This document shows, in pieces, positions 1,295 through 58,622 of a DNA stretch of 64,000 bases. Position 1 is the stretch's first letter, and every line of letters begins with the position of its first letter. Source of the DNA: an uncultured virus (IMG/VR IMGVR_UViG_3300030107_004098). Lineage: Duplodnaviria; Heunggongvirae; Uroviricota; Caudoviricetes. Under the pieces are notes generated by a model. It ran no database searches. It was not told the DNA's origin and was given only the letters and a program-made list of their open reading frames with translations. Where the stretch lies: the IMG/VR virus record IMGVR_UViG_3300030107_004098; one strand, given 5' to 3'. The translations under genes were made by a program, and so were the position numbers.

Positions 1295-1809
1295 TATACT
1301 ACTTCCGTTGTTTGCTTTGCGCGCTTTATCGCGTTCAATTTTTTTAGTTCGTCGATTAATGCGCTGGCCTCCCTACGAGTTAATCCCAAAGGAACTTCCC
1401 CGCCTAATTTTTTAATGTATTTAATTTGTTTTTCTGTTGGTTCTAGTTCTGCATTATCTTCTGCTACTTCTTTAGCGTCTAATTTCTTTCTAATCATAGA
1501 AGCCGTAGTTAAATCATGGCATTGTTTACATAATTCAATTACATTACCTCTAAGTTTAATAAAGTGATGTAAACCTTCTTCTTTACATCTATGTTGGGAG
1601 ATAATATGGTGCCATTCAGTATAGCCTTCTGAACCGCATATCTGGCATTCACCTGTTTTATCCCATAATTCCCCTTCTTGTGAAAGAAGGTTATCTAACG
1701 TTTCTTGTCTAACGTTAACTGTTTCTCTTGCTTTTTCTAAGGCTTCTACGGCCTTCATAATACTCTTTCTATATGTTTTTGTTTTTCCCATTTTACCACC
1801 ATTCATCAA
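1291..1809 (-). CDS. HNH endonuclease-domain protein
   Basis: CQICG..EWHHII..NVIELCKQCH motif. Confidence 0.75.
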   Translation of the reverse strand: MMNGGKMGKTKTYRKSIMKAVEALEKARETVNVRQETLDNLLSQEGELWDKTGECQICGSEGYTEWHHIISQHRCKEEGLHHFIKLRGNVIELCKQCHDLTTASMIRKKLDAKEVAEDNAELEPTEKQIKYIKKLGGEVPLGLTRREASALIDELKKLNAIKRAKQTTEVVY

Positions 1810-4246
1810 TAGTTGTTTGGATTCCTACTTCAGATATATTCTGAAGGTTCCACCCTAAACTCTCATAAATTAATGTTACTTTCTTAACTACCTCTGATTC
1901 AGCCAAAGAAGCCCAATCAGGAGGATAGTCGTTAATGACTTCATCAATACGTTTACACGCGATGTAGTCAACCGGTCTTGTTCTTTCCCCTACCATAAAT
2001 GTTCGTGCTTTTTTAAGGCTACGGTTATCACAACGATAGAAGTAATAACTATCACCCACTGCTATAGTCCCAATACCACTATTGTATACTTTAACTCCTG
2101 CAACGCCACCTGCTAATACCTTATATTCATCTAACTCCTTACGTAGCCTAGAACGTTTAGCAATAGTATTCATATCTACTTCACCATTCTTTAATAGGTT
2201 ATAATTTTCTTTACAAAAAGTAGTAACTTCTTTTTCTACTACACCCGATGCAACCATCTTTAGTGTAGTTAATTGAACATTCTTAGCAAATGCTGTTTCA
2301 TTACTTTTCTTTGCTTCAAAACCCATCATGAAGAAATTATCCTCTTCCAGATATTTACCATCTTTCCATGATAGATAACCACAGTATCTATTTTTCTTCT
2401 TAGATAAGAAGAATGATTTAGCAAACTTTTCAAACTCCAAAGTCACGAAATCATTGAACACGTCGTTTCTTAAATGTAAATTTAATTTACCGCACAATTC
2501 TTGTGATTCTTCCGGATTCTCTACAATTACAAATATAGAATCTGTGTGTCCATAAATAACTTCATAACCTAATTTTTGTGCTTCAAATGCAACACTTCTC
2601 ATAGCGTGTCGGGCTGATGCTGTAATTGCTGCGGCCATTTCCATATCGCCCCAACCATAACCATCTTTAGCCAATACACCATAAAGAGCATTAACTACAC
2701 GCTTAGTAGCCATTTGAGCAGAATCCCATTTACGCTTATCTTCATCCGTAGTAGCATTCTTTAATTCCCTCTTGTATTCGTCTCGCAGAATCATTAACCC
2801 AATAACACACCTAGGTAGTAGGCCAAGTGGTTCCTTTTTGAAACCAACATTACATTGTTCTACTTCTCTATCAAATTCACCTAGATTCTTAGGTGTTCCA
2901 AAATATATCTTGTTACACGTATCGTCTGGCTTTAATGTCTTAGTTTCCCATGAGATATTATTCGCCGCCATCATAGATGGGTAAAGAGATTTAAAATCAA
3001 ATACAGCAACATTCTCATGTAAACCATATGTATTTTCATAGTCAGGGTCCATAACGAATGCCGCTTCGTATTTTTCTTTATTACCTTTAATACCTGTTGG
3101 TGCTATCCAGTCAGCGTGTTTCATAAAATACGAAGCACCCATTTGACTATTATAGAATACACATTCAAACGGGCAAATTAGCAATCTTTGTAGTGCTAAA
3201 TCGTTTTCACTAATACGCATCTTCTCATCCATTTCTACCATTAGTTTAACGTCAACATAGTTATACTCAAGAAATACTTCTGTATCTTCTAACCAAGCAC
3301 GACGGAAAAACTCATCTCCTTCAAACTTAGATTTCTTTACTTTACCACCTGCATCTTCACCAAGTAGTGCTTTAGAACAGTATTCAAGTGAAAGAGATGG
3401 TAGGGTTCCACGTTGAGAATCTAACCACAATCTTTCAAATCTAGTCATTAGACAATAAGTAATTCTACCCTTAATAGGTTGGGCAGTATTAGTATATTGT
3501 GTTCTAGGTGTTTTTGTTAAATCTGTATATACTCCAGTGACCTCATCAAAAGGACTTAACCTTCTAGCGTTAATATTGTTACTACACATATTTTGTATAA
3601 TAACCGGAATATCGAAACCTAAAACATACCACCCAATAATCATATCGGGGTCTTGTTGAATACATTGTCTTAGAAATGCCCTAAGCATCAATGTTTCATT
3701 TTCATAGATTTCAACATTAACATCGTCTCCAGCCCATTCATTAACTAATTCCCTTTCCTCTGGAAACCAAGTATATACAGTATACATTTTAGTATAACTA
3801 TCATATACAGTAATAGCATTAATCTGTTTATAGTCACGTCCACTTGTTGTTTCAATATCAAGATACCATTTTCGCAAGTTATATTCTTTAACTGAATCCA
3901 TATTATCTACACAATATTGTCTAGCCAAAGATACATCTGCTCCGTATGTTCTAATAGCATTTTGATGAAAATGGTCCTTTAACCAATACACTTCATTTCT
4001 AGAACTAAGTGTAATCTTAAGTAGAGCATCACCATTAAGATTTTTCTTCTTAGTTGTATCTATTCTAGGTCTAAGTAATTTTTCTTGGCCCCAGTGTCTG
4101 TAAGTATATACTTTCTTTAACTTACTATAATCCTTAGATTCAACATAGAAATAGTGTCTATAGTCATCAATACTATCAGTCACTCTTTGATTTTGTGGAT
4201 TCCTCCACCTTAACTTCACTTTGTCTCTTACCTCTGTAATTATCAT
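1793..4246 (-). CDS. polB: family B DNA polymerase
   Basis: Exo I YLDIET, DFKSLYPS, KRVVNALYG, YGHTDS, KKNRY; C-terminal PIP box QTTIDEWW. Confidence 0.97.
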   Translation of the reverse strand: MIITEVRDKVKLRWRNPQNQRVTDSIDDYRHYFYVESKDYSKLKKVYTYRHWGQEKLLRPRIDTTKKKNLNGDALLKITLSSRNEVYWLKDHFHQNAIRTYGADVSLARQYCVDNMDSVKEYNLRKWYLDIETTSGRDYKQINAITVYDSYTKMYTVYTWFPEERELVNEWAGDDVNVEIYENETLMLRAFLRQCIQQDPDMIIGWYVLGFDIPVIIQNMCSNNINARRLSPFDEVTGVYTDLTKTPRTQYTNTAQPIKGRITYCLMTRFERLWLDSQRGTLPSLSLEYCSKALLGEDAGGKVKKSKFEGDEFFRRAWLEDTEVFLEYNYVDVKLMVEMDEKMRISENDLALQRLLICPFECVFYNSQMGASYFMKHADWIAPTGIKGNKEKYEAAFVMDPDYENTYGLHENVAVFDFKSLYPSMMAANNISWETKTLKPDDTCNKIYFGTPKNLGEFDREVEQCNVGFKKEPLGLLPRCVIGLMILRDEYKRELKNATTDEDKRKWDSAQMATKRVVNALYGVLAKDGYGWGDMEMAAAITASARHAMRSVAFEAQKLGYEVIYGHTDSIFVIVENPEESQELCGKLNLHLRNDVFNDFVTLEFEKFAKSFFLSKKKNRYCGYLSWKDGKYLEEDNFFMMGFEAKKSNETAFAKNVQLTTLKMVASGVVEKEVTTFCKENYNLLKNGEVDMNTIAKRSRLRKELDEYKVLAGGVAGVKVYNSGIGTIAVGDSYYFYRCDNRSLKKARTFMVGERTRPVDYIACKRIDEVINDYPPDWASLAESEVVKKVTLIYESLGWNLQNISEVGIQTTIDEWW

Positions 4247-10439: not shown

Positions 10440-10629
10440 CTACCTCTTTATGCATTTGTAGGTTTGCTACAATTGACCGCCATAAATGCCAGTTCTTAAT
10501 TACGGGTATTTCGCTAAACGATAATAAGGCTTCCCTTATTCCGCAATTTGGGCATATGTCGGTTTTATTGTCCCATCTGCTAATTGCACTATGTTCAGTG
10601 TATTCAATTGAGCAGATAGGACATTTCAA
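10348..10629 (-). CDS. zinc-finger protein
   Basis: CPIC...SRWDNKTDICPNCGIREA. Confidence 0.6.
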   Translation of the reverse strand: MKCPICSIEYTEHSAISRWDNKTDICPNCGIREALLSFSEIPVIKNWHLWRSIVANLQMHKEVVDNGTKEKETKTQRRSKKVHSGAKRKNKKK

Positions 10630-12131
10630 CCTAACAACTCCTGTAGATTTTTAAATTCACTAGGTCCATGTTTATCGGTCCTTAGACGAATAAATCTAGG
10701 AAACCTTAGACCGACGTTTCCATCTTGGTCTTGTGTTACAATATCTGCATGAACTTCCATTATAGTTACGTCTCGATTATTATCGTAATAGTCGTGGACT
10801 ACCAATAAATCTTCTTCTGTAAAACCAGTTCCTACTGAACCAACACTAATTACATTATCTCCAATCATTACTCCTAGTTCATAAGAACCATAATAACCGG
10901 CTCTTTTACCTGTTCCCATAGTCGCATTCATTACAATACAATCTAAATCTACTAGAGCAGGTTTATGTTTTAACCATGAACGCTTACCCGGTTCATATGT
11001 TTGTTCTACACCTTTAAGGACTAATCCTTCATATCCATCTTTAATAGCCTTAGTGTAAGCATTTTTGATTTCTTCCTCACCAGTTACAATTTCCGTATCT
11101 GTAATATTTACATTAGGGAAGTGCATACGAATAGTATCTAACCTATTACCATAACCGAAGTTATATGTATCTTGTTTGTTGAATGTTAGAATATCAAAAA
11201 TAATAGCCTTAACCGCTACACGATTACGCACTTGTTCTGTTTTACCATGAATGCGAGGCATAATCTCCTTGAACTCAAGAACATTTCCTTCACTATCAAT
11301 AGGCACAATTTCCCCATCAAGAATAAACTCATCAAACTCTTCACCCCAAGATTCAACATTAAGGTCTGCAAACTTCTCTGTAATATCTACACCTTTACGG
11401 TTAAAAATACATACATACCCATTTTCATCCCTATGAAACTGAGCGCGAATACCATCATACTTTACATCAGCATAATAAGTTCCTGTTAATGTCTTGGCGG
11501 TTTTAGCCAATTGAGGTTGAACGTAACTACCCGGTTCAGGTATCATTAGTTCCCCTACACCATTACCAAGACACACTTCATCAATAATAGTATTAAGATT
11601 ATTGAACTTAAGTGCGGTCTTGAAATCTCCTGTTGGGATAAGATACTTCTTTTGCAGGGATTTTTTAGTTACATTATCCCCTGCACCGTTTCTCTTTTGG
11701 TTTATCACAACTGCCGTATACCACTTCTTTTCTAGTTTACCCATATTACTGAAACGTTCCATGAATATTAGCCTAGCGGTTACTATATCTTCTGCAATAG
11801 ACAGTGGGTGAAAGGCATCATATAAACTATAGTCAATACAATCACCGGCATCAATTCCAAACTCTTCAAGTAGTTCGGGAACTCCACCAAAATCATCTAC
11901 TAAATCCTGTAGTCCTTCTTGTTCTAGCCCTAGTTCATCAGCAATATGTGGTAAGAGGTTCTTTGCTCCTAAACCTACACTACTGAACTTATCTGTTAGT
12001 GTGTGATAAAACATAGACCAATCCTTTGATAAATCATCATCAGCAACAATACTGTTAACAATTTGTGTGGGAGTCATATTAAGATATGATTCCATCTTTT
12101 CTGCAAAATCACTCATCAACATTTGTTTCAC
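10626..12131 (-). CDS. lig: ATP-dependent DNA ligase
   Basis: KYDGIR, ILDGEI, FDIL, EGLVLK, WLKHK, GSVGTG, LRFPRF. Confidence 0.95.
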   Translation of the reverse strand: MKQMLMSDFAEKMESYLNMTPTQIVNSIVADDDLSKDWSMFYHTLTDKFSSVGLGAKNLLPHIADELGLEQEGLQDLVDDFGGVPELLEEFGIDAGDCIDYSLYDAFHPLSIAEDIVTARLIFMERFSNMGKLEKKWYTAVVINQKRNGAGDNVTKKSLQKKYLIPTGDFKTALKFNNLNTIIDEVCLGNGVGELMIPEPGSYVQPQLAKTAKTLTGTYYADVKYDGIRAQFHRDENGYVCIFNRKGVDITEKFADLNVESWGEEFDEFILDGEIVPIDSEGNVLEFKEIMPRIHGKTEQVRNRVAVKAIIFDILTFNKQDTYNFGYGNRLDTIRMHFPNVNITDTEIVTGEEEIKNAYTKAIKDGYEGLVLKGVEQTYEPGKRSWLKHKPALVDLDCIVMNATMGTGKRAGYYGSYELGVMIGDNVISVGSVGTGFTEEDLLVVHDYYDNNRDVTIMEVHADIVTQDQDGNVGLRFPRFIRLRTDKHGPSEFKNLQELLG

Positions 12132-13168: not shown

Positions 13169-13440
13169 TATTCTTCCTCTCCTTTAAATTCGAACCCATA
13201 GGATTCTAGTTTTGTTTGATTCTTATCCTGTCCAAATAGGACATTGTGAATCTTGTTAATTAATTCCTCTTCATTATTATGAGTCGCCTCAATAATCCGA
13301 TTAAGAATCTTAAGTTCTTTTTGATAATCACTCATCCCAAATCCCTCCACAATTACTGCATTCGGGTTGGTTGGTTTTCCAATCAACAAACATATAATAT
13401 CCACATACATAGCATCTATTTTTATCTTCCATTTAATCAC
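13168..13440 (-). CDS. hypothetical protein with PIP-box-like motif
   Basis: QTKLESYGF near C-terminus; coupled between E1 and JAB. Confidence 0.55.
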   Translation of the reverse strand: MIKWKIKIDAMYVDIICLLIGKPTNPNAVIVEGFGMSDYQKELKILNRIIEATHNNEEELINKIHNVLFGQDKNQTKLESYGFEFKGEEE

Positions 13441-14015
13441 CCATTATATGTGGCGTGTTTCTTTACATCTTCACCATTAAACCATCTTTGAACCCATTGA
13501 GCGCCATAACCTGCTGCTACTACCTGCATAAAATGAACACCTGTAGTATCTCCTTCCCATGAATCGCCTTGGCAACTAAAAGAACCATCCGGTCCAGCAG
13601 TAAATGACGAATATAACTCTGCACGTTCTAATGATGAAATAAGAGCAGCGTTTCTACCTTGTGCTCTTAGGTCTAACCAATTAATGTTATGAGAAGCATA
13701 TAATGTTCTCCTAACTGCAAGATTATCTGCACAACAAACAACTAGGTCAAATCCTTTTACTTGCTTCATAGTTAGAACCTTGTATGGTTCTCCAGTTACT
13801 GTAGAATATCTATCATCCATAACTTTAACCTTGAACTTTTCAACATCTTCTTCATCGAAGTTTTGGTATGTTATATTCTTTATTTCTACTACATCAGGGT
13901 CATATACTGTAATATTGTATAGTCCTGTTTTGTCCAATAGGGGTATTAAGAAACTCCCAATACCACCTGCTCCGATAATCATAATCTTTCTCTTCTTATT
14001 CTTTCTCTTAGCCAT
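13437..14015 (-). CDS. ThiF/MoeB/E1-like adenylating enzyme
   Basis: IIGAGGIGS, YDPDVVEIKNITYQNF, CADNLAVR, WLDLRAQG, Cys in GSFSCQ. Confidence 0.9.
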   Translation of the reverse strand: MAKRKNKKRKIMIIGAGGIGSFLIPLLDKTGLYNITVYDPDVVEIKNITYQNFDEEDVEKFKVKVMDDRYSTVTGEPYKVLTMKQVKGFDLVVCCADNLAVRRTLYASHNINWLDLRAQGRNAALISSLERAELYSSFTAGPDGSFSCQGDSWEGDTTGVHFMQVVAAGYGAQWVQRWFNGEDVKKHATYNG

Positions 14016-20463: not shown

Positions 20464-20516
20464 ATTTAATTCTCCTTTTTTGGTAATTTACAGAGATACC
20501 AACTCTAAATAATAGG

Positions 20517-20590
20517 TGGGTCTAGTGGGATTTGAACCCACGACCAACGGGTTAAAAGCCCGTCGCGCTACCTTACTGCGCCATAGACCC
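20517..20590 (-). tRNA. tRNA-Lys(UUU)
   Basis: GGGTCTA acceptor stem, anticodon arm ACGGG-CTTTTAA-CCCGT, GGTTCAAATCC T-arm. Confidence 0.93.
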
Positions 20591-20596
20591 AAAAGA

Positions 20597-20671
20597 TGCT
20601 GAATACGGGATTTGAACCCGTGTCCACGGAATGAAAACCCGCGATGATGGACCTAACTACACCAATTCAGC
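20597..20671 (-). tRNA. tRNA-Glu(UUC)
   Basis: GCTGAAT/ATTCAGC acceptor, loop TTTTCAT, ACGGG-TTCAAAT-CCCGT T-arm. Confidence 0.88.
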
Positions 20672-20686
20672 GTTTTGAATAATAAG

Positions 20687-20768
20687 TGCTGGAAGTAGGA
20701 TTCGAACCTACGAAACATTTTGTAATGGGACTTAAGCCCATCGCCTTTGACCACTCGGCTATTCCAGC
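20687..20768 (-). tRNA. tRNA-Leu(UAA)
   Basis: GCTGGAA/TTCCAGC acceptor, ATGGG-CTTAAGT-CCCAT, long variable arm, GTTCGAATC. Confidence 0.93.
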
Positions 20769-23300: not shown

Positions 23301-23723
23301 GTGAGAATGTGTTGCATAATGACGATGAAATTGAGTGTGAAATAGAATTACCACATTATGCAACGTAAAAATATAGTATTTTCAATCAAAATACCACTAA
23401 AATATATGTATAGTTTGAGATATGGTTTATATAAACACTAGGTCAAACCTACATAAATAATTAATATGTTCATGTGCAAGACATACATCTTAGCACTTAG
23501 TAATGGAGAGGACCGAGTAGAGTATATAAGCACCTCCGACCCAACATTTCAAATGTTTGAATTGTCTAGATAACATATTTAATAATATTATTTAGATATA
23601 TTATTACACCTATCTTACCATATGGAACTTTGTGGCCCAATTTCTCTAAAAATAGGGTGGAAGTCGGGAAGATTCGCTAATATCTCCCCGACCTCCGGAT
23701 TTGACCGATTAACGCTGGTATTT

Positions 23724-24194
23724 TCAGTTACCACAGTAATTTTCGTCGTCTCTTCTAATATCTTTTATCAGAGTTTCTGATATATCTAGAAGTTTCGAGA
23801 ACCTGTGTTGCTCCATATGCAGATACCTTTCGGCGGTGCGGATTTCCTTTTCATGGGATTTCTTATGTTCCTTGAGTTTGCTTTCCGCGTCCCACTTTTC
23901 GCTGCTCAACTTATCCTTAGCAGATTTTAGTTTATCAACATGTGATACCATATCTGCTAGATGGTCTACCACTGAAAGCGGCATCCCAATTAGGATATTG
24001 AGGCATGAATGGCCTACTCCTGAATCTGGCTTTGCACGGGTTTGCATAGCGAATGCATATACCGTATTGATTACCATAATCAGGAAATTGTCGTTCTTGC
24101 AGTAAGTAGAACTGATTCCCAGTTTTTTAGCGATTTCTGGGATGTCCTCCTTACTGATGTTGTTCGTGTTACTAGATGTCGATTCCTCGTCCAT
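23724..24194 (-). CDS. hypothetical coiled-coil protein (leaderless, cassette promoter)
   Basis: ATG at 24194, conserved promoter box starts at 24213. Confidence 0.7.
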   Translation of the reverse strand: MDEESTSSNTNNISKEDIPEIAKKLGISSTYCKNDNFLIMVINTVYAFAMQTRAKPDSGVGHSCLNILIGMPLSVVDHLADMVSHVDKLKSAKDKLSSEKWDAESKLKEHKKSHEKEIRTAERYLHMEQHRFSKLLDISETLIKDIRRDDENYCGN

Positions 24195-24212
24195 GTTTAT
24201 GTCTAAAAATAA

Positions 24213-24254
24213 GAGTATATAAGGAACAATACTACAAAGCGACGTTCCATATGG
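24213..24254 (-). promoter_or_regulatory. conserved promoter cassette (TATA + CAAAG + CCATATGG)
   Basis: GAGTATATAAGG...CAAAG...CCATATGG. Confidence 0.75.
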
Positions 24255-24677
24255 TCCTCCGTTTTATACGGGACCGCAAAATGGGGATTACGATGTTAGT
24301 GGTGATGATTAGACGGTTATTAAGTCAAATCAGATGAGTATGCATCGTACCATATGGTAATAATTTGTATTTACCCCAATTTTTAACTTAAAAAAAAGTT
24401 ATTTTTTTGATTAAGCAGAAAACATTAAAAACTGCTATATTTGTTTACTTCTTATTTTTGTAGTCATCTTTAGGAACACAATGCCCTAAATCCCACAATA
24501 CGCAGAAATAACACCTTGAGCGACAAGCCCTTGTAGGCGTTTTTCCACTATTTACCTTGTCTAACCATTCTTGATTAATTACGCTATCTTCACTCATTAT
24601 TACACCTTCTACAATTACCTATACGATACCAATTACCGCATTTTTCGCATTGACTTGGAATTGCTCCGCACATATTA

Positions 24678-24947
24678 TCACTCCGAGATTATCCATTCTT
24701 CACTATCTAATTCGATACTAGCAGATAATAAGTCGATTCCTTCAAAATACATACGGGGCGACCATCTGAAATTATGTGCTTTTTGCATAGCACCAAATTG
24801 GGTTTCTAACCACTCAATATATTCAAGAATAATTATTCCGTCAGTAATCAATTGTTTAGGATAAGGCCAAGTGCAATCTGAATTAGTGCATTCAGCACTA
24901 TCATCCTCGGCTCTTACCAATTTCCATCCACATCTAAAACATTTCAT
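24678..24947 (-). CDS. zinc-finger hypothetical protein
   Basis: CFRC...CTNSDC; GGAG RBS. Confidence 0.55.
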   Translation of the reverse strand: MKCFRCGWKLVRAEDDSAECTNSDCTWPYPKQLITDGIIILEYIEWLETQFGAMQKAHNFRWSPRMYFEGIDLLSASIELDSEEWIISE

Positions 24948-25207
24948 TCATTCATCTCCTTCAATTGTAGCATAATCTGTTCAGTAATTCGTTTAACTGA
25001 ATCAATCAATTCCTCTTCCGACTTAGCCGGAATACGTAAAGATTCGATTATCCAATTTTGATAACGGTCCTGTTTGAACTTCACTATATATTCGGGGTCA
25101 TTCTTCTTCCAAAACATATTTTTTCGCTCCTTTCTTAATTATAAATGCACATTTTTTACACATTCGATATTGACGTGTTAGTTTACGTCCACAATTCTCG
25201 CATAGAA

Positions 25208-25489
25208 TCATTGTTTACCAACCGTCCAATCATAACGACGTTCATCTTCGGTGCGCCAATCCCAATCAGGATAACGCTCCTTAAGCCAATTAGGGTTTTC
25301 TTCTCGCATTTCACGATGTTGATGCCCCCGCCTTAACGCCTTTAGTCGTTCTCTACGCCAAATAGGATTATTCCAGTTATATGCATCTTTTTTGTTTGCA
25401 TATTCAGGGGCTATTCTATCAAACCCCTTTACGAATAATCCGTATTTGCGTCCATATCTATTTGTAAATGTATTACTCATTTCGTTCAC
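25208..25489 (-). CDS. hypothetical protein
   Basis: GGTGA RBS; likely start MSNTF. Confidence 0.55.
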   Translation of the reverse strand: MNEMSNTFTNRYGRKYGLFVKGFDRIAPEYANKKDAYNWNNPIWRRERLKALRRGHQHREMREENPNWLKERYPDWDWRTEDERRYDWTVGKQ

Positions 25490-25509
25490 CTTATTAAAAT
25501 AAAAAAATT

Positions 25510-25543
25510 GACTTTTTTGGTTTCGCAGAAAGTCGTAACTGCG
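25510..25543 (-). ncRNA. small H-type RNA pseudoknot, family B copy 2
   Basis: CGCAG-UUACGACUUU-CUGCG-AAACCAAA-AAAGUC, followed by U-tract. Confidence 0.5.
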
Positions 25544-25699
25544 CCGATGTGTAAATTTTTGTGTATTTTTATCGGATTAATTTTAGCATCTATTACCGGA
25601 TGCCTCGGTTTTTGGCTTTTTAGAGCGTGGAAGCCATTAACCACGGGAAAGAGGCTATTATGATTAAGCCTCTTCCTCATCGAGTAGAATAAATTGCAT

Positions 25700-26290
25700 T
25701 TATTCAGCACTCTCCTCGTTGTTAGAGTCGGAATTGTCGTTACCGACAACGCTCCAAGTCATTTTAGCATTACCGTCCCAAATCTTGTTACGGTGCTTAG
25801 ACATAAGACCCTGCTTTTCCGCGTTAACTTTCGCCTTAATGAAATCCTCTGCGGTATCAATTAGACCGTATGGGTTTTCATCAGCACGACCGGAAAGACG
25901 GAATAGGCTTAGGTTCTCTGCGCCTTCAATGCTATTTCGCAATTCGTAAATTGCGGTATAGACCTGTTCTGCTACTCCAACATGGGTATCAACAATTCCC
26001 TGTGTTTCGGGGTCAAGGGTTGAACCTCTTCCACGAACAAACGGCCAAATACCGACAGGAAACATCTTACCCGCTAAGTGGATTCTTTGCTTAATGTCTA
26101 ACGCTGGTTCGTCAGACATGGCGCTTAGAAGCCTCTCTATTTGCTGCATATCGAATTCTGCGAAGTTTCTGTCCTTCTTAGATTTGATAGCCGCTATTAG
26201 CGGGGTTGTTGTCTCAACCCATTCATTCACCTTTGCAGAATAAACTGCAAAGTCATCTTTACTCATTACTTTCGTATTTTCTTCACTCAT
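25700..26290 (-). CDS. hypothetical protein (cassette promoter)
   Basis: GGTGA RBS, ATG at 26290. Confidence 0.7.
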   Translation of the reverse strand: MSEENTKVMSKDDFAVYSAKVNEWVETTTPLIAAIKSKKDRNFAEFDMQQIERLLSAMSDEPALDIKQRIHLAGKMFPVGIWPFVRGRGSTLDPETQGIVDTHVGVAEQVYTAIYELRNSIEGAENLSLFRLSGRADENPYGLIDTAEDFIKAKVNAEKQGLMSKHRNKIWDGNAKMTWSVVGNDNSDSNNEESAE

Positions 26291-26345
26291 TTTTTTCACC
26301 TTTTACAATGTTGCCCCATCACAGGACAATTAATTCCCCCAATTA

Positions 26346-26386
26346 GAGTATATAAGGTACGTCCTGCAAAGCGGAGTACCATATGG
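26346..26386 (-). promoter_or_regulatory. conserved promoter cassette
   Basis: GAGTATATAAGG...CAAAG...CCATATGG. Confidence 0.75.
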
Positions 26387-26405
26387 TAGTAATTTGTAAT
26401 ACCCC

Positions 26406-27022
26406 AAAAAAATAAAAAAAATAAAAACAGGAAATCAGGAGCGTAAACACGTTCATTCAAATACGATTTTTACAGGTTATCGGCCGATTCCCGCACTATC
26501 CATATGAGGTGAGTAAGGTGCAATACTCCATCATTCCCACGGTGGAAAAGAAGGTGGGGTCTTAATGGTTTAAGATTAAGAAATTACTCATTTTACAGTT
26601 CTTTCGCAGACGGCGTTCACATATCTGTCTTTTAAGGCCGGTGTGTAATCTTTTACCCCGTAAAGGTTGCGCGGTAAGGCTAGATGAGGTTACATCGACA
26701 CTTACAAATTTCACCGGATTCCTATGCATTCATGTTCGTATACATTTGAATATGACGGCTACTTTAACTCACCACAAAAAGGCTCTTACTCCTAATTGCT
26801 GCCACTAACTACCCGCTAAGGTAATCCCGCTATTAAATCGGTCACAAATACATCCTTTGATTATTACGATGCTTAATCCTCGGTGGGAAAAATAAATTGC
26901 TTTTGGACACTATATCCAATGGGGCAGGTGATTGTCTTAACAATGCTTCACACTGTTTATTCGACACACGCGCGAATCCCATTCAATGCGCTAACGCGCC
27001 ACCACATGACCGGCTGAGATAC
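26406..27022 (-). ncRNA. candidate ~600-nt structured non-coding RNA
   Basis: Begins at cassette promoter, no minus-strand ORF of 60 aa or more, many hairpins, ends in U-tract. Confidence 0.55.
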
Positions 27023-27038
27023 TTATTTGGTCAATATA

Positions 27039-27078
27039 TAGTATATAAGGAACAACCACAAAGCGTAGTTCCATATGG
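27039..27078 (-). promoter_or_regulatory. conserved promoter cassette
   Basis: TAGTATATAAGG...CAAAG...CCATATGG. Confidence 0.75.
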
Positions 27079-27159
27079 TTCATTTTTCTAGGCGCAGTGA
27101 AATACAAGGCAACGCGAATAAAAATAATAAATTTGTGGTATTTTTACTTGTATTGAGCA

Positions 27160-27212
27160 AGCAAAAAATAACCCCAGATGGGGAAGGAGGGGTTTTACCC
27201 CCTCCCTCCGAA
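27160..27212 (-). terminator. GC hairpin with U-rich tail downstream of the 27226 stop
   Basis: GGAAGGAGGGG-tttta-CCCCCTCCCTCC. Confidence 0.5.
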
Positions 27213-27225
27213 TCAGGATTCTTCT

Positions 27226-27711
27226 TCATCCCTCAAGGGTTTCACCCTCGGTTGGTTCTTCTGTGGTTTCACCGATTGTAAGAAAATCGGTGATTTGCTC
27301 AACAGTGGTGAAATTGTTGTTCTTCACTACTGTTCGGAGGCGGTTGATTGCGTTTTTAGTGCTATCTTCCATTGTCCTCTTTTCACCCTTCTTGAGAGTT
27401 AGTAGGGTAATAGCCAATTGTGGGTTTTGGCTAATTACATCCCACGCATTCCCATATAGAGGGCTTGCAGGTCTACGTCCACCTTGTAGTGGGTTAGCAG
27501 AATCCTTGTATGACTGTGCGATAGTTTTTATTCGGTTCATCATTTCTTCCTTCTTGGAATCATTTTCATTACCGAAGGCTACGTATCTTTCGATATTTGC
27601 CTTATCGTGCTTAGTCAAATCACTGTCGTTCCAAAACGTCATGGCTAACCACGCAGTTACGCGGGCCATAAACGCTGTCCATCGTTCATTTATTGTAGGG
27701 CTGTCGCTCAT
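27226..27711 (-). CDS. hypothetical protein (leaderless, cassette promoter)
   Basis: ATG at 27711, promoter box variant starts at 27730. Confidence 0.7.
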   Translation of the reverse strand: MSDSPTINERWTAFMARVTAWLAMTFWNDSDLTKHDKANIERYVAFGNENDSKKEEMMNRIKTIAQSYKDSANPLQGGRRPASPLYGNAWDVISQNPQLAITLLTLKKGEKRTMEDSTKNAINRLRTVVKNNNFTTVEQITDFLTIGETTEEPTEGETLEG

Positions 27712-27729
27712 ACTATATTCAAAATTATA

Positions 27730-27776
27730 GGGTACTTAAGTTAAACCACAAAGTTACCCACATAAGTACCATATGG
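27730..27776 (-). promoter_or_regulatory. conserved promoter cassette (variant)
   Basis: GGGTACTTAAGT...CCACAAAG...CCATATGG. Confidence 0.65.
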
Positions 27777-27816
27777 TAATAATTTGTATACCTCAAAAAA
27801 ATAATTAAAAATAAAT

Positions 27817-27843
27817 AAGCAGTTTTTTGACTTACTTAGGTCT
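27817..27843 (-). ncRNA. small H-type RNA pseudoknot, family A copy 2
   Basis: GAC-CUAAGUAA-GUC-AAAAAA-CUGCUU, followed by U-tract. Confidence 0.55.
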
Positions 27844-28317
27844 GCGTATTTCGTCTTTTTACGTCGTCACGTCCGGCTCAATTAACTAAGTTACGCTTCT
27901 TTCCGGAGATTTAATAACTGAATTAACAGTTAATTGGTTATCGTAAACCGACAACCCCTCTAGTCACGTTCATTATAGAGGTTAAGATTCTTCTTCATCG
28001 AAAGACATTATTCATCACCTCTCAATAAGTCGATAAATTCTGAATAATCCATTCCGAATGATTCTGCTAATGTTTTTACAGGGATTGCTACGTATAACCC
28101 CAATTCATCATTATATCCCCATGAAGAATCGTATTTTTCTTTTCCCCAATCTTTCATTACCTGTAGATTCATTCTTCTTCACTCTCCATCCTTTTATATC
28201 GAAGAACATTCATTACTCGTTCTCTATCGTAATATAGAGCATCCTCTAATTCTTCTAATTCCTCAATGGATAATTTTTTCAATTCAGATACAATGTATTT
28301 TTTAGGATAAGTAACCA

Positions 28318-28614
28318 TTATTCCACCCTCTTTTCTACAATCTTATATTCCCAATTTCTGACTGCTTCAGTTAGGTCGTTCAATAGTGGTCTTCCACTAC
28401 CTCTAATTGCACCTTTTATGGTAATTGCGAGGTCAATTGCTTGTAGGCTAATTCTATCTTTTATTTCCTGTGCTTGATTCATGGCTTTTTCTTTAGTCAT
28501 AAATAGACCAATTATCTCCATGTTATCCGGAGTTTCAATGCTACCTGCACCTAATCTCCACGGCAATCTTCTTCTTGTTACGTGTAATTCGTATACATAC
28601 TGTGTGTTGTTCAT
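28318..28614 (-). CDS. hypothetical protein (leaderless, cassette promoter)
   Basis: ATG at 28614, promoter box starts at 28633. Confidence 0.7.
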   Translation of the reverse strand: MNNTQYVYELHVTRRRLPWRLGAGSIETPDNMEIIGLFMTKEKAMNQAQEIKDRISLQAIDLAITIKGAIRGSGRPLLNDLTEAVRNWEYKIVEKRVE

Positions 28615-28632
28615 ACTATATTCGTTTATTTA

Positions 28633-28672
28633 GAGTATATAAGGAACGACTCCAAAGTGTAGTTCCATATGG
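28633..28672 (-). promoter_or_regulatory. conserved promoter cassette
   Basis: GAGTATATAAGG...CAAAG...CCATATGG. Confidence 0.75.
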
Positions 28673-28879
28673 TAGTCATTCATCTTCGTCACGTCCTGTT
28701 CGAATATTAATGCGGTAGTGCTGGTTTAAAATCTTCTTACACCCATATGGTTCTATTTAGTTGATACGTTAGTTAAACCCAATTTCGGGGTATTAGTACC
28801 ATATGGTTCCGATTTGCGTGAACTTATTTCGTTATTAAAATAAAATATCTAAACATCATATTTAGACACCAATCTTTAT

Positions 28880-29272
28880 ATGGGACATTCAAACATCTTA
28901 TTTCGAGGCAAAAGCATGTACACTTTTAACTTTAATTTAGGCGGAGAACCAAATATAGCCCCCGCACACGATTTTATGCCATTAATAGAAGCCCTAAAAG
29001 GGATAACAGAGGACTGGCAATCTTTCTATAACTTATATAAAAAATTCGCGCCGCCTCCAATAGAAAACCAAGTACAAATACAATCATGGTTTAATGAGAT
29101 TAAAGATGCGTTAGATGAAGTCGTTGAATTATATAATAAGATACCTGAAGCGCCAACATTAGAAGGCATACACAATACAGAAGATGCTGCAGATATGTTA
29201 TCTAAATTTAATGAAATAAATAACATAATTAAATCAGTTAAATCAGATGACGACAATCATATGTATAATTAA
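28880..29272 (+). CDS. hypothetical protein, first gene after strand switch
   Basis: TTTATA box at ~28875 suggests real start MYTFNF at 28916. Confidence 0.6.
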   Translation: MGHSNILFRGKSMYTFNFNLGGEPNIAPAHDFMPLIEALKGITEDWQSFYNLYKKFAPPPIENQVQIQSWFNEIKDALDEVVELYNKIPEAPTLEGIHNTEDAADMLSKFNEINNIIKSVKSDDDNHMYN

Positions 29273-29405
29273 ATAACTTATTCAAATAAAATAATATAGA
29301 TAAACCTTGGAAATAAAAACAAAAAATAAAAAAAAATTTCGCTAGTCGCAAAAAAATTACCGCCCAAAATTTGAAAAATGAAATATGATATGGAAGTGTT
29401 GTAAA

Positions 29406-30005
29406 ATGTGGAAAGATATTCTAAAAGCACCACCGTTTAGATTATATGATAGAAAAGGCGGTAAATCTTTAATTAGATTAAAGGATGTAGACGTTTTATA
29501 TTCTGGTGGTAAAAAAGGCGACAAACCTAGTGGTTTTTGGACTCCAGATTTACAGATGGCTTTTCAGTATGCTTTGTATGGGGATATACTAAATACCCAA
29601 CCAAGATTAGGAGAGCCAGTAATATTTGAGGCTAGAGATTTTAGTATGATTCCAATGTATAGAGAAATTGAAACAGATTATGGGTTTTTAGATTTTAGAA
29701 GATACAAAAAATTAAACTATAAAACCATTGAAGGTCCAGAATTAGCAAGGTTTATTAAAAATAATGACGATGATTTTGCATATGTTTTTAATCAAGAAAT
29801 TTCCGGAGTATCTATGGGAGAAGTAATTCAACTTTTGGAAGAGGACGACCCTACGGCTAGCAGATATTTCTTTGGACCTAGAGAAACTAGCGAATATCAA
29901 AACATTAGAAGTCATCAAATGAAACGGCTATCAAGAGATAGGTATAAAGATTTAATAGGTACTCGCGCAATTAACGATTACGACGTAAGGCGGGATAAAC
30001 AATGA
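29406..30005 (+). CDS. tagged protein, possible ADP-ribosyltransferase-like fold
   Basis: MWKDILK tag; LYSGG..GFWTPDLQMAFQYA. Confidence 0.6.
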   Translation: MWKDILKAPPFRLYDRKGGKSLIRLKDVDVLYSGGKKGDKPSGFWTPDLQMAFQYALYGDILNTQPRLGEPVIFEARDFSMIPMYREIETDYGFLDFRRYKKLNYKTIEGPELARFIKNNDDDFAYVFNQEISGVSMGEVIQLLEEDDPTASRYFFGPRETSEYQNIRSHQMKRLSRDRYKDLIGTRAINDYDVRRDKQ

Positions 30006-45955: not shown

Positions 45956-48403
45956 ATGAGCGAAGAAATAATAAAACTAGTAGATAACGCTTTTAGGAGA
46001 TTAGGAGTAAATAGAGGAATGGCCGGTTCAGCAAACAAATTAGTAGAACTAATAGGAGGCGAAGTTACTCCTGAAGAAATAACCAAAGCAGTATCGGAAA
46101 TAAGGGACCAAAGATTACATGTTTTTAATACTTTTATACAATATGTAAATTACGGGACTGAAGAATTAGAATATAAACAAGTCGTAAACTATAACGTATT
46201 ACATGATATATTAAGACAAAAGCATAGTGACTTAGATAATTATATATTGGGTAACCCATATAAAAGAGCAACAGTTAAAAAATTAATTGTTGATTTAGAC
46301 AAAGAAAACTATTCTCCAAAAATACCTATTCCATTTTTTACACCCAAAGAGCGTCAGTTATTTATTACTGTTATTGACGGTGTTACTAGAGACAGAAGAA
46401 CATCTACAAAAATAGATTTAACTAAATTTGCTTCTAAACTTACTACAACTAGAGCAACTGACCTTAGAACTCGTAACAACACATATAAATATTGGAACCA
46501 AGTAAAGGGTGAATTTAAAACTATGATTGATGCGATAAATGCTTCAGGTACTATACCTCTTAGTAACGGTAAAACCATTAAAGAAATTCCTAGTTATATT
46601 ATTACTATGGGACCGCTAATCATTAAAAAAATAATTAATCCTAACCACCCAATTTTATTAGATGTTTTACGACATAAATATATTAGCGATGAATTAAACG
46701 ATATAATAGAAAGCGAATATGTAGCAATAGGACAATTTGATGACGAGGGTGGACAAACAGGGTATGGTGCGGAAATAAGTCAACGAGATACGACTTTAAC
46801 AGATACATCACCATTACAACAATTAAGAGATAATATTATTTCTATGTCTGATGTTTGGTTATCCGAAGAAGAAAATATTTCTTTAGACCCATTATTAACA
46901 ATTATTTTACAGGACGAAGAATTTCCGACAGTAATGAATGCAGAACAAATAGAAACAAATGTAGAAAAAGTTATTGCTCAACTACAATCAGGTATTGATG
47001 CAGAAGATTTAGAATTCCTTGCACAGTCATTTAATAAATACAAAAAAATAATTAGTGATAATCTTAATAGATACCAACCTATTAGTCGTAAAACATACAG
47101 TTTTGCTATCATGGATGGTCCAGAAATATCGCAGAAAGTATTAACCGAAGCACTAGAAGATACACCAGCAGTTAAACCTACTTATGAGTATCTTGTAGCG
47201 GAATACACTGGGGATAAATATACAATAACAACAAAAATCGCTAAAAATTATTCTAAAATGATTAATGAAATAAATAAATCAACTAATGAAGTAATCAGAT
47301 TCTTTACTGACCATTACGATGTCGAAAAATACATTACTGAAGATAGTAAAACTGTTTATTCTGTACCTCAACAACAAAAACATGCTAAAGCAAAAAGAGT
47401 TACAGGTTTAGGTACTCCCAGTATTCCTATACGTAGAATACCCGAAGGGCAGATTGGAAAAAATACTGCGGGATTAACGGATGCATTAACAAGATATTAT
47501 TTTACTGCTCTTACTGAACAAAATATTAACTTGGACGACTTACCTAATTTTACAAAAACAAAACAGTATAATGCATTAAAGCGACTATTAGCCAACGACC
47601 CCGTTACTTTAGTCACTAAAGAAATAGCAAGTGGTAGAAGTCGCCCGAAGTTTAGTATGGCGCAATTTCAGGATATGAATAAATTTTTGAAAATAATAAA
47701 ACAGGGATATATACAAAGATATGACGCAAATAATTCGGTCTACGCGGATAAATTTATTTCAGGCATAATTAATTTAATACGACCTATAGGTATACAAAGG
47801 TTTAGACCTATAGAAAGAAATTTATCAATTTTATTAGGAGCAATATTACACCAATCTTGGGAAAAATCTGTCGCTGCTAAGGACGACCCTGAATCACCGA
47901 AATTTAGAGGGAAAACATTAGAATATTGGAATAACACATATCACTCAGCAGAAGAGGATAAAAAAGATTTATACCTATCTTTTGCTAATTTACATAGATT
48001 ATTTAATGAACCAATTATGGTAGAATACTTACAATCTGAAGGTGCTGTAACTGGTCAAACTCAAGAAAATTCAGCCTATTACATTGTATATGGACAAAAT
48101 GGAATAGTGGATAATCTGACTAAAGTTTCAGAAAACTTACCAAAACTTGCCTCGGCTGTATTGTATTCTTACGATTTAATTAGAAAACACAATAACCTAC
48201 CAATTTATAGTGGGTATTTAGATGTAAACTCTCCTGAAGATATAGAATATCTAATTGATACTATTGATAAAAAATATAGTTTGGATGTTTATGGTAAAGA
48301 CGTAGATACTATTGTTAAGTCCCATATGACCATGAAAGAGTTAGTATCTACATTGGGTATTCCTCACGAAGTAGTGTATCATATTAGGGGAATGTTTAGA
48401 TGA
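45956..48403 (+). CDS. large hypothetical protein
   Basis: 815 aa ORF. Confidence 0.75.
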   Translation: MSEEIIKLVDNAFRRLGVNRGMAGSANKLVELIGGEVTPEEITKAVSEIRDQRLHVFNTFIQYVNYGTEELEYKQVVNYNVLHDILRQKHSDLDNYILGNPYKRATVKKLIVDLDKENYSPKIPIPFFTPKERQLFITVIDGVTRDRRTSTKIDLTKFASKLTTTRATDLRTRNNTYKYWNQVKGEFKTMIDAINASGTIPLSNGKTIKEIPSYIITMGPLIIKKIINPNHPILLDVLRHKYISDELNDIIESEYVAIGQFDDEGGQTGYGAEISQRDTTLTDTSPLQQLRDNIISMSDVWLSEEENISLDPLLTIILQDEEFPTVMNAEQIETNVEKVIAQLQSGIDAEDLEFLAQSFNKYKKIISDNLNRYQPISRKTYSFAIMDGPEISQKVLTEALEDTPAVKPTYEYLVAEYTGDKYTITTKIAKNYSKMINEINKSTNEVIRFFTDHYDVEKYITEDSKTVYSVPQQQKHAKAKRVTGLGTPSIPIRRIPEGQIGKNTAGLTDALTRYYFTALTEQNINLDDLPNFTKTKQYNALKRLLANDPVTLVTKEIASGRSRPKFSMAQFQDMNKFLKIIKQGYIQRYDANNSVYADKFISGIINLIRPIGIQRFRPIERNLSILLGAILHQSWEKSVAAKDDPESPKFRGKTLEYWNNTYHSAEEDKKDLYLSFANLHRLFNEPIMVEYLQSEGAVTGQTQENSAYYIVYGQNGIVDNLTKVSENLPKLASAVLYSYDLIRKHNNLPIYSGYLDVNSPEDIEYLIDTIDKKYSLDVYGKDVDTIVKSHMTMKELVSTLGIPHEVVYHIRGMFR

Positions 48404-49587
48404 TTACCTTTCCCAATAAGATATATTCTGAGGCCGAGGTAATCCAATTATACGAAGAATCTTACTCTAAATGGAAAGATAAGAATAAAACCGATGGAAC
48501 ACCACTTGCTAAAACTAGAACACCTAGAGCGCAACAACCATTATTTCCCGCATTTACTAGAAAAACTCCTGACGGGTATTATGTTGCTTTAGATGGAGAT
48601 ATTTTAGCGGGTTGGGCAGGTTGGAGAGCCGTAGATGAAAATCTATATTTAACAGCAGGTTCCTTTACTGCTCCCGATTATAGAGGGCAGGGCGTTCAAA
48701 GCAATCTTTGGGTTAAAAGAAACTCTATATTTGCTGGAAAATCTGTTATTACTATTACAAACAAAAAAGAAAAAAAGTGGGTTAATTTTACTAGCCGATA
48801 TTATCCCGAAGTTACTATAGACAAAATACCAGAAAAGTATAGAGCAGACGTTCAGGACGCTTTAGATTTTTATGAAAAAAGAGGTAAAGGTCCTAAAGTT
48901 TTTTATAGAGGACCTACAGAAGACAGTGCTATGCAAAAGGCATGGGGTATCATTAAAGCAGATGTTGACTTTAAGTTATTTATTCCTGACTACATAAAAA
49001 GCGAAACCACTGGAGGGATATACGATAGAAGGACGGGAAATATAGAAATTTACCCGTCATCCGTATATAAATATCTAAAGGCTAAATTACAAAGAAAACC
49101 TAAAGATGAAGAATTACAGAAATTTGTAGTTGCTCTTATTAATCACGAAGCAGGTCACGCCGCCGACTATTCAGTAAATCCACACCTTAATATGTTTTGG
49201 GATGAACATGAAGTAGATTCTGCTAGAGAATGGGTAGCATTTCAAAGTCAACACCCTAAAGACCCTTATCTTGCTATGGTTGGTTTTTTAAAACACCCAT
49301 ATACGTATAAATTAGTAGGTCCGAGAGGACAACCAGCAAGGGGTGTAGATTACATAACAGATAATGTTACACAAGAACATCATCCCGGACTACCGACTAG
49401 CATTAAAAAAATAGTTGCATATGTAAATAAACATGCTAAAACTCCTAGACAAAAAAATAAATTAGCCACGTTAGAATTATCCCAAAGAGGTAGAAAAGTA
49501 AGGAGAAATTTTCCCACTAATATATTGGGAGCAGTACGAAGATACGGAAAACAACATTTAGATTTTCTTAAAACGTTAAGGTGGTAA
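48400..49587 (+). CDS. GNAT + HExxH metallopeptidase-like fusion with internal tag
   Basis: PDYRGQGV; internal MQKAWGIIKA; LINHEAGH. Confidence 0.75.
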   Translation: MITFPNKIYSEAEVIQLYEESYSKWKDKNKTDGTPLAKTRTPRAQQPLFPAFTRKTPDGYYVALDGDILAGWAGWRAVDENLYLTAGSFTAPDYRGQGVQSNLWVKRNSIFAGKSVITITNKKEKKWVNFTSRYYPEVTIDKIPEKYRADVQDALDFYEKRGKGPKVFYRGPTEDSAMQKAWGIIKADVDFKLFIPDYIKSETTGGIYDRRTGNIEIYPSSVYKYLKAKLQRKPKDEELQKFVVALINHEAGHAADYSVNPHLNMFWDEHEVDSAREWVAFQSQHPKDPYLAMVGFLKHPYTYKLVGPRGQPARGVDYITDNVTQEHHPGLPTSIKKIVAYVNKHAKTPRQKNKLATLELSQRGRKVRRNFPTNILGAVRRYGKQHLDFLKTLRW

Positions 49588-58253: not shown

Positions 58254-58622
58254 GTGGATTGGAAAATTATTCTAAAGAGAAAATTATCTAATTCTGAACA
58301 TGCAAACGTTATAAGTATTCTCTTAGAAGATTTAAAACAAGATGGAATAACATTAGAAAACGCAGGTATTCAATGGTCTGAATTTGTTATAGGTGATGAT
58401 TTTACATTTCCTAAAAATTATAGAGTAGAACTAGAAGGACATTCTGCTATCTTTTATTTAGATTTTACATTCCCTAATATGAATCCTACGATTAGACATA
58501 TTAGCGGCGACAAAGATTTAACAGATTTAATACGTGAATATCTCTCTACTGAACAAGATTTAATAAATAGAATGATACGTGCTATATCAAAAGATACCAC
58601 AGGAGATGTTGCATATGGGTAA
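58254..58622 (+). CDS. tagged hypothetical protein
   Basis: GTG start after AGGTGG: MDWKIILKR. Confidence 0.65.
   Translation: MDWKIILKRKLSNSEHANVISILLEDLKQDGITLENAGIQWSEFVIGDDFTFPKNYRVELEGHSAIFYLDFTFPNMNPTIRHISGDKDLTDLIREYLSTEQDLINRMIRAISKDTTGDVAYG

Follow-up and report, generated by a model that had tools for sequence, protein, structure and literature searches.

Introduction

Large noncoding RNAs known from phages include GOLLD and ROOL, both of which are Rfam families. The phi29 pRNA, ~120–174 nucleotides (nt) in length, acts via intermolecular loop–loop pairing, and a promoter that fires into a noncoding stretch initiates replication in the case of ColE1 RNA II as well as at the promoter-dependent origins of T4 and of T7. 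Magroviruses, in turn, are assigned to marine group II archaea, an uncultured group that ranks among the most abundant archaea of the surface ocean. To the same archaea, the sections of PMC5069720 considered here assign Tan1, an abundant 229-nt noncoding RNA with a proposed complex fold, and they report archaeal RNase P RNA and signal recognition particle (SRP) RNA, of about 300 nt, as abundant in the same metatranscriptomes. Here we describe a putative RNA gene on a 64,000-nt stretch of DNA (hereafter the window) from an uncultured Caudoviricetes virus (IMG/VR IMGVR_UViG_3300030107_004098), namely the minus-strand stretch 26406–27022, which is gene-sized and free of open reading frames (ORFs).

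A first-pass annotation of the sequence had proposed a promoter-driven, ORF-free gene for a structured RNA in this stretch, and the proposal is now supported by homologues, covariation, the lack of a common ORF and of an Rfam family, and contigs from RNA libraries. Based on the layout of the stretch, its conservation in three viruses, its lack of coding potential, several covarying stems and its presence in RNA libraries, we consider it likely that the magrovirus-like tailed virus, whose hosts are marine group II archaea, here encodes a structured noncoding RNA in a stand-alone gene.

Conservation of the putative RNA gene in three viruses

The homologue set comprises the window and two IMG/VR virus contigs of 92 kb (L005) and 96 kb (L006): the former was reached with a profile of the 196-amino-acid (aa) protein encoded downstream of the RNA (16 relatives), and the latter with a two-block pattern from the RNA core. 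A further contig (L001), retrieved with a 21-mer in a metagenome scan, is identical to the window and, not being independent, was not counted. The two other matches of that scan were due to chance. L002–L004, L008, L009, L011, L012 and L015–L017 are chance matches that have the search pattern alone in common with the RNA.

All three loci display the same layout, in which a ACCATATGG box and a TATA-like box are followed by an ORF-free body, a long T-tract and then GGGTNTTACAAATTANNACCATATGG. The distance from the predicted start to the T-tract is about 600 nt in the window, 400 nt in L005 and 460 nt in L006. Thus, the ~600 nt originally proposed for the RNA hold for the window, but the total length varies, and the conserved part is the 5′ ~360 nt (26660–27020, minus strand), which could be aligned with L005 and L006. 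The variable 3′ tail (26428–26659, minus strand) is poorly alignable or absent in both. L005:1546–1940 is 67% identical to window 27079–26668. Across a 146-nt core the three copies are 66–75% identical in pairwise comparisons, with the L006 core being 66–68% identical to the others and scoring 154 bits with the core model R1, which finds one strong copy per virus. At the amino acid level the L006 virus is 69% identical to the window in the capsid protein and 59% in PolB, and neither of the proteins flanking the RNA in the window is detectable in it. In both these viruses the RNA gene lies ~23 kb upstream of PolB, and in the L006 virus it is inverted.

The genes around the three copies bear on whether the stretch might rather serve the downstream 196-aa gene, as its long leader or as a regulatory RNA made by read-through of the T-tract into 26290–25700. 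Indeed, the next same-strand gene in the window starts 116 nt past the T-tract, and homologues of the 196-aa gene occur in related contigs, including one 1.4 kb downstream of the RNA in L005. However, this gene has a complete cassette of its own, two opposite-strand genes separate the RNA from the 200-aa gene in L005, and the L006 virus has the RNA and no detectable copy of the protein. As the genes after the RNA are on the opposite strand in both L005 and L006, the RNA unit appears to stand alone and not to be a leader, and we regard the leader alternative as improbable.

Model R1 had no match in 151 genomes sampled from the presumed host order, which is that of a Candidatus Poseidoniaceae genome reached via a tRNA word, nor in two bacterial metagenome-assembled genomes (MAGs) containing mis-binned relatives of the virus. 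The phage collection contained no DNA match to 26300–27200 and no match to the neighboring 199-aa protein. Neither of the flanking proteins had a match in IMG/VR at first, nor had the promoter pattern or a core 26-mer; the pattern of the 3′ module matched the L005 contig alone, and the profile of the neighbor protein had no match among the genome contigs. Weaker R1 matches were noted within the window at 25576–25701 (22.8 bits) and 59125–59243 (12 bits).

Predicted promoter cassettes and terminator

The RNA unit is preceded by one of four near-identical minus-strand cassettes (aligned at 24214–24255, 26347–26387, 27040–27079 and 28634–28673), each with the order ACCATATGG, ~9 nt, CTTTG, ~9 nt and CCTTATATACT; a 20-nt cassette pattern has five matches in the window against 0.02 expected. 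In the cassette of the RNA (the 27059 cassette), the ACCATATGG box occupies 27071–27079 and the TATA-like box CCTTATATACT 27040–27050, both on the minus strand; the former is the same in all four cassettes, and the latter is an 11-mer that is exact in all of them. In two of the sibling cassettes an ATG lies exactly 20 nt past the TATA-like box TATATACT, at 24194 (a 156-aa ORF) and at 28614 (a 98-aa ORF). The box is thereby placed about 21–28 nt before the start, as is typical of archaeal promoters of leaderless mRNAs, and the spacing at 24194 and 28614 suggests that these two mRNAs are leaderless. The 27059 cassette has an ATC at 27020–27018 in place of the sibling ATG. The first-pass annotation, which had noted this ATC, had assigned an ATG to all three siblings; it is found in two of the three, and the third (the 26367 cassette) has no gene start at the aligned position, its gene beginning at 26290 behind GGTGA. 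This 26290 gene has a 37-nt leader with the GGTGA, unlike the genes at 24194 and 28614. By register with the sibling cassettes, the predicted transcription start of the RNA is the A of the ATC at 27020 (27018–27022, minus strand); the uppermost contig from an RNA library ends at 27006.

At the other end of the unit, the U-tract of the first-pass annotation is present as an oligo-T tract at 26406–26427 (minus strand), and such a tract is kept 3′ of the RNA at each of the three loci. Archaeal RNA polymerase is known to stop at oligo-T. Because the host of the virus is archaeal (see below), we read both elements as archaeal signals, the 27059 cassette, with its ACCATATGG box and TATA-like box, as a promoter and the T-tract as an oligo-T terminator. 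The two are kept in the three loci, and the activities ascribed to them are predicted from archaeal transcription rules. Immediately after the T-tract comes a conserved module GGGGTATTACAAATTACTACCATATGGT (26378–26405, minus strand) common to the window, L005 and L006; its window copy doubles as the start of the next cassette. The earlier impression that the region is GC-richer than its flanks did not hold, its GC being 0.37–0.435 against 0.38–0.455 in the flanking genes; it exceeds that of other intergenic stretches (0.28 and 0.20–0.27) alone.

The ACCATATGG box has nine sites in the window, all within 23617–28807 (13 strand matches against 0.35 expected), and it resembles an operator that would unite early or host-takeover genes in a regulon. 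The 5.2-kb stretch that contains all these sites lies between the replication and structural modules, and the box often takes the form of the palindrome ACCATATGGT. A second module, a long T-tract followed by GGGGTATTACAAATTAYTACCATATGGTAC, is seen at 26378–26427, 27768–27830 and 24342–24400 of the window, at L005:2000–2060 and at L006:560–620. At three of these five places it has no TATA cassette behind it, and it may constitute a terminator-plus-operator unit.

Absence of a conserved reading frame

The longest minus-strand ORFs of the region measure 46 and 55 aa, with none of 60 aa or more before the T-tract, and the next ATG (27007) opens 16 codons; on both points the first-pass annotation was accurate. 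The longest sense-strand frames are 55 aa in the window, 32 aa in L005 and 84 aa in L006, and none is common to the three copies, so that conserved small ORFs, which would have been another explanation of the region, were not found. An invariant block, CGTAATAATCAAAGG, translates to RNNQR in two of the copies, L005 and the window, but to GVIIKG in L006, and the window has a stop codon where the frames of L005 and L006 continue. Between any two copies 9–11 of the 11–13 gap runs are not multiples of three, the mismatches are without codon phase (p 0.43–0.99), and one contig from an RNA library (X14 record 3) has six 1-nt gaps within 176 nt. In terms of sequence comparison, these features are those of an RNA without a conserved reading frame. 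Recoding was also considered: reading TGA as W or TAG as Q opened no longer frame (longest 84 and 80 codons), and TAA as Q gave a 194-codon plus-strand frame with six recoded codons, which was rejected because the long genes of the window are intact under table 11.

The same comparisons make it very improbable that one or more small proteins, such as those of the 16-codon, 46-aa or 55-aa frames, are the real product. Short sense-strand frames do exist and leaderless translation is likely in this virus, but such frames are not common to the three copies, the indels are mostly not multiples of three and codon phase is lacking. A somewhat different possibility is that the locus is the decaying remnant of a protein gene, with the ATC representing a lost ATG, which is transcribed and functionless. 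This would account for the ATC where two siblings have an ATG and for the 84-aa frame that covers the core in L006, at the start of which L005 and L006 share ATGCAATT. However, three viruses whose hallmark proteins are 59–69% identical have kept the nucleotide blocks together with the promoter and terminator, and their stems are maintained through compensating changes; the common blocks fall in different frames; and the 84-aa product has no Pfam family. Hence, we give the remnant alternative little credence.

Covariation and individual stems

Collecting homologues and checking them for covariation, as the first-pass annotation had suggested, yielded two homologues and compensating changes beyond those in shuffles. 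RNAalifold on the three bodies (alignment A5) gives a consensus fold of −30.8 kcal/mol in which 24 of 66 pairs are compensatory. In 200 column shuffles that kept the gap and identity patterns, the mean energy was −18.5 kcal/mol (standard deviation (sd) 3.5), with none of the 200 as low (z −3.5), and compensatory pairs averaged 10.3 (sd 3.5, maximum 19); the consensus fold of the reverse complement reaches only −21.9 kcal/mol. When pairs are counted over the whole body, 0 of 500 shuffles reach the observed values, and controls with slid partners have 2–6 compensatory pairs against the 24. In the 146-nt core, for which five helices were set by hand on alignment A6, 7 of 27 pairs are compensatory against 2.3 in shuffles (again with 0 of 500 reaching the observed count), and 90.8% of the cells are paired against 36–55% with slid partners. 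In the 5′ domain, compared between the window and L005, 9 of 27 pairs are compensatory. Thus, within the compass of three sequences and of structures drawn from those same data, base pairs appear to be kept by compensating changes beyond chance. MAFFT misplaces some of the registers, and a ribosum-scored alifold run was dropped on account of an implausible covariance term.

The individual stems, all on the minus strand, run from the 5′ end as follows. The hairpin GCGC-GUUA-GCGC (26988–26999) has the form UCCC-AAUA-GGGA in L005, with two of its four pairs changed on both sides. The hairpin UUGGAUA-UAG-UGUCCAA (26903–26919), already named in the first-pass annotation, is paired at seven of seven positions and is borne out by two compensatory changes in L005; it is not clear in L006. 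The next hairpin (26875–26890) displays a conserved loop (26880–26885) that reads CACCGA, CACCGA(U) and CAUCGA in the three copies. Its register was read by eye, and its 26887/26878 pair, C-G in the window, is replaced by U-A in both homologues and by G-C in two contigs from the RNA libraries of two studies. It is followed by a hairpin (26850–26872) whose 13-nt loop, GUAAUAAUCAAAG (26855–26867), is invariant and which folding of the window sequence by itself also predicts: here the 26869/26853 pair is U-A, A-U and G-C across the three copies, and the 26870/26852 pair goes from A-U to G-C in X14 record 3.

Downstream, an outer U/G-rich helix (26811–26849) surrounds a 3-bp hairpin with the invariant loop AUUUAAUAG (26830–26838), and the 26841/26827 pair of this hairpin is C-G, G-C and A-U across the copies. 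An 8-position helix with an 8-nt loop (26775–26798) has five of its eight pairs changed on both sides; two U-U mismatches of the window are U-A pairs in L006, and in X14 record 3 both helix strands are one base short (at 26796 and 26779). Finally, a GUAAG/CUUAC helix surrounds a hairpin with a UAAC-containing loop (26674–26705), in which three of the five inner-stem pairs are compensatory; the outer helix is kept in the window and L005, with three of five pairs in L006. The motif UAGCG occurs in 3, 2 and 5 copies in the three RNAs against 0.3–0.5 expected.

As for the five helices of the first-pass annotation, all are fully complementary, but three are in the unconserved tail or in conflict with the covariation. 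The TTCCCAC (26883–26889) of the supposed long-range TTCCCAC/GTGGGAA helix pairs locally by covariation, and the GTGGGAA lies in the tail that is absent from the homologues. Likewise, the hairpin at 26560–26581 and the proposed 5′–3′ closure involve the tail (26430–26660) and have no counterpart in the homologues.

Presence in RNA libraries

Parts of 26300–27200 are contained in 20 runs of 11 studies, and the RNA runs examined that contain the stretch are marine or aquatic. The evidence is drawn from four of them, and not from the other 16 (shares 0.13–0.29, and X1, the possible source). These four RNA runs, from four studies, were mapped on 24000–29000, and all four libraries have short contigs (136–296 nt) over parts of 26696–27006. 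Those of X2 are identical to the window, and the other libraries include diverged copies, among them X14 record 3, which over 26764–26939 differs in 27 letters besides its six 1-nt gaps. Contig cover on 24000–26695 and 27007–29000 is limited to 28393–28543 in X2, and missing cover constitutes no evidence. Placed on the RNAalifold structure, the variants in the RNA contigs keep nine paired places, three of them by changes on both sides. When the CACCGA hairpin is drawn in the register suggested by L005 and L006, several breaks vanish and two U-U mismatches become G-C and U-A; since the register was changed after the variants had been seen, they are not an independent test of this hairpin.

Several observations weigh against a structured noncoding RNA. 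With respect to structure, only three genomic copies support it, and it was derived from the same sequences that were used for the covariation counts. Taken singly, the sequence folds with no unusual stability on either strand (z +0.39, minus; −0.44, plus): the minus strand has a minimum free energy of −157 kcal/mol, its shuffles average −159.6, and 12 of the 20 are at least as stable, so that the earlier description of the region as dense in helices amounts to no more than chance for a single sequence. The outer helix 26844–26849/26811–26816 varies between U-G and U-A and is never changed on both sides, and two X14 variants break its pairs. Overall, the RNA-contig variants break 13 paired places of the RNAalifold structure, part of which are due to misregistered helices. 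With respect to expression, the contigs cannot show strand, ends or level, an RNA library may contain DNA, and the X2 contigs, which represent the identical strain, do not extend past 26696 into the 3′ 270 nt. With respect to coding and function, L006:719–973 (minus strand) is the 84-aa open frame over the core that is found in L006 alone, and the complements of the two long loops occur in the window at chance level, with no target found there.

A magrovirus-like virus of marine group II archaea

In a collection of 50,697 phage records, archaeal tailed viruses are the only ones matched by PolB (1793–4246) and the major capsid protein (61991–63289) of the window, with 21–27% identity. The window encodes two ATP-dependent DNA ligases, one among the replication genes (10626–12131) and the other between the portal and prohead protease genes of the structural module (58579–60705), as well as a ribonucleotide reductase. 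In the sections of PMC5434244 considered here, magroviruses have a halovirus-like capsid, those of groups A and B have two ligases, one of them in the structural module, and those of group B have the reductase. With PolB, a capsid module of the halovirus-like type and a pair of ATP-dependent ligases of which one is encoded among the structural genes, the window belongs, by gene content, to a tailed, magrovirus-like virus of marine group II archaea and not to a bacteriophage; because of the ribonucleotide reductase, we tentatively consider it group B-like. Thus, the setting is not the one assumed in the first-pass annotation: the virus is archaeal, the cassette and the U-tract are predicted archaeal signals, and the likeness to ROOL and GOLLD which it had raised is one of kind and not of family. 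The capsid protein family has at least 903 members, many of them on marine contigs of 85–100 kb.

Other features of the virus were noted alongside these. Three adjacent tRNA genes (Lys-UUU, Glu-UUC and Leu-UAA) are encoded on the minus strand at 20515–20768, and an 18-mer of the tRNA-Leu gene is common to many archaeal genomes, including a Candidatus Poseidoniaceae MAG. The replication-side block codes for a ThiF-family (E1-like) domain protein (13437–14015, E 1e-17), and a 395-aa protein encoded just before the terminase (48400–49587) has a weak match to GNAT acetyltransferases. Magrovirus-type capsid genes (54–57% identity) are also present on the 10–29 kb contigs L019–L022. The MAGs that contain these contigs carry the labels Altibacter sp. 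and Maricaulis sp., and the contigs are probably viral sequences that ended up in bacterial bins. Gene orientation switches at 28700–29500, with minus-strand genes up to 28614 and plus-strand genes from 28880; the cumulative GC skew turns in the same interval, and GC drops to 0.20–0.27 at 29100–29500. The interval 28700–29500 is a candidate replication origin or divergent control region.

Proposed mode of action

The strongest alternative to a stand-alone RNA gene is that the stretch gives rise to an origin-linked transcript or acts as a cis-acting replication element, providing a primer, an R-loop or transcriptional activation of viral DNA replication. A promoter without a gene behind it would fit such a role, as would the position of the unit ~2 kb from the orientation switch near 28.7–28.9 kb, with its GC-skew turn and its stretch of GC 0.20–0.27, the T-rich tract and the following module being the best-conserved parts of the 3′ end, and the clustering of ACCATATGG boxes solely in this 5-kb region. 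However, there are no iterated boxes inside the RNA region, and it is the 5′ body, with its covarying stems and invariant loops, rather than the 3′ end that is conserved. Moreover, the L006 virus has kept the sequence of the gene even though its orientation with respect to PolB is reversed there. The skew turn coincides with the strand switch and hence by itself marks no origin, and the sections of PMC5434244 considered here describe magroviruses as encoding their own primase and helicase. We therefore deem the origin-linked role unlikely, albeit less so than the other alternatives.

Under the favored reading of a stand-alone RNA gene, the archaeal transcription machinery of the host would start ~20 nt past the TATA-like box CCTTATATACT, near 27020, with the unit being co-regulated with the three sibling cassette units via the ACCATATGG box. 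The first ~360 nt of the transcript would fold into short hairpins that present the invariant loops CACCGA, GUAAUAAUCAAAG and AUUUAAUAG, the UAAC loop and the repeated UAGCG motifs. The variable-length tail would come next, and transcription would end in the oligo-T tract at 26427–26406; both end points are predicted from the signals described above. The invariant loops and the UAGCG motif could be contact sites for a protein or RNA partner from the host or the virus, and the RNA, co-expressed with the other cassette genes, might act in trans as a scaffold or decoy.

A broader proposal, possible but by no means secured, is that this is the founding member of a family of abundant structured magrovirus noncoding RNAs and the first large structured RNA known for archaeal viruses. 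It would have been kept across lineages in which the neighboring early proteins were replaced, and would belong to a virus-specific promoter regulon. Its role would be that of a ribonucleoprotein scaffold or decoy through which the virus takes over a function of its uncultured marine group II hosts.

Comparison with known RNAs and significance

An Rfam 15 search of the whole window at the gathering score matched only the three tRNAs. At E values up to 10 (4227 models), window 26000–27400 had four chance-level matches outside the RNA body, L005 one and L006 two, all far below the thresholds. The scan thus returned no family for any of the three copies, and the RNA looks like a member of a family not yet catalogued in Rfam. 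A term search of the magrovirus papers PMC5434244 and PMC11706807 found no mention of a noncoding RNA or a promoter, and neither an RNA gene nor a promoter is described for magroviruses in the papers so checked.

Among RNAs of the presumed host group, Tan1, as described in the sections of PMC5069720 considered here, is likewise a noncoding RNA abundant in marine metatranscriptomes, from the same archaea and of unknown function. It differs in being GA-rich with GGGAAAC-type repeats (Table S5, PMC5069720), and a word match, without alignment, of three conserved 13-mers of the magrovirus RNA found none of them in the supplement of that paper. Moreover, Tan1 was mapped to contigs taken as host (PMC5069720), whereas the magrovirus RNA was not found in the 151 host-order genomes. 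Archaeal RNase P and SRP RNAs are close to the conserved core in size and abundance class; however, the RNA has no match to RNaseP_arch (RF00373) or Archaea_SRP (RF01857) and no homologue in the host-order genomes searched.

ColE1 RNA II also is a noncoding transcript, of ~550–600 nt, which has a dedicated promoter and in which folding matters. In contrast to it, the conserved part of the magrovirus RNA is the 5′ body and not the 3′ end, and the virus family encodes its own primase (PMC5434244, sections considered here). The phi29 pRNA provides a precedent for the proposed scaffold role, as a virus-encoded structured RNA with its own promoter that is part of a ribonucleoprotein machine. Unlike it, the magrovirus RNA has no Rfam match and no loop–loop complementarity that could be seen by eye, and its gene lies between the replication and structural modules and not next to the terminase.

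The conserved RNA, with its putative promoter and terminator, could provide a specific marker of active infection in metatranscriptomes, and the cassettes offer a first picture of magrovirus transcription signals. Further, its modest length makes the RNA amenable to chemical probing, structure work and partner searches, none of which would call for a cultured host. The closest parallel in kind remains with GOLLD and ROOL: like them, it is several hundred nt long, has many predicted helices, is virus-borne and was found by comparative genomics, and as in their case the function is unknown or has only recently been addressed. It differs from them in its archaeal host, in the shorter conserved part (~360 nt) and in the absence of an Rfam match, and would thus extend the virus-borne structured RNAs to the viruses of archaea.

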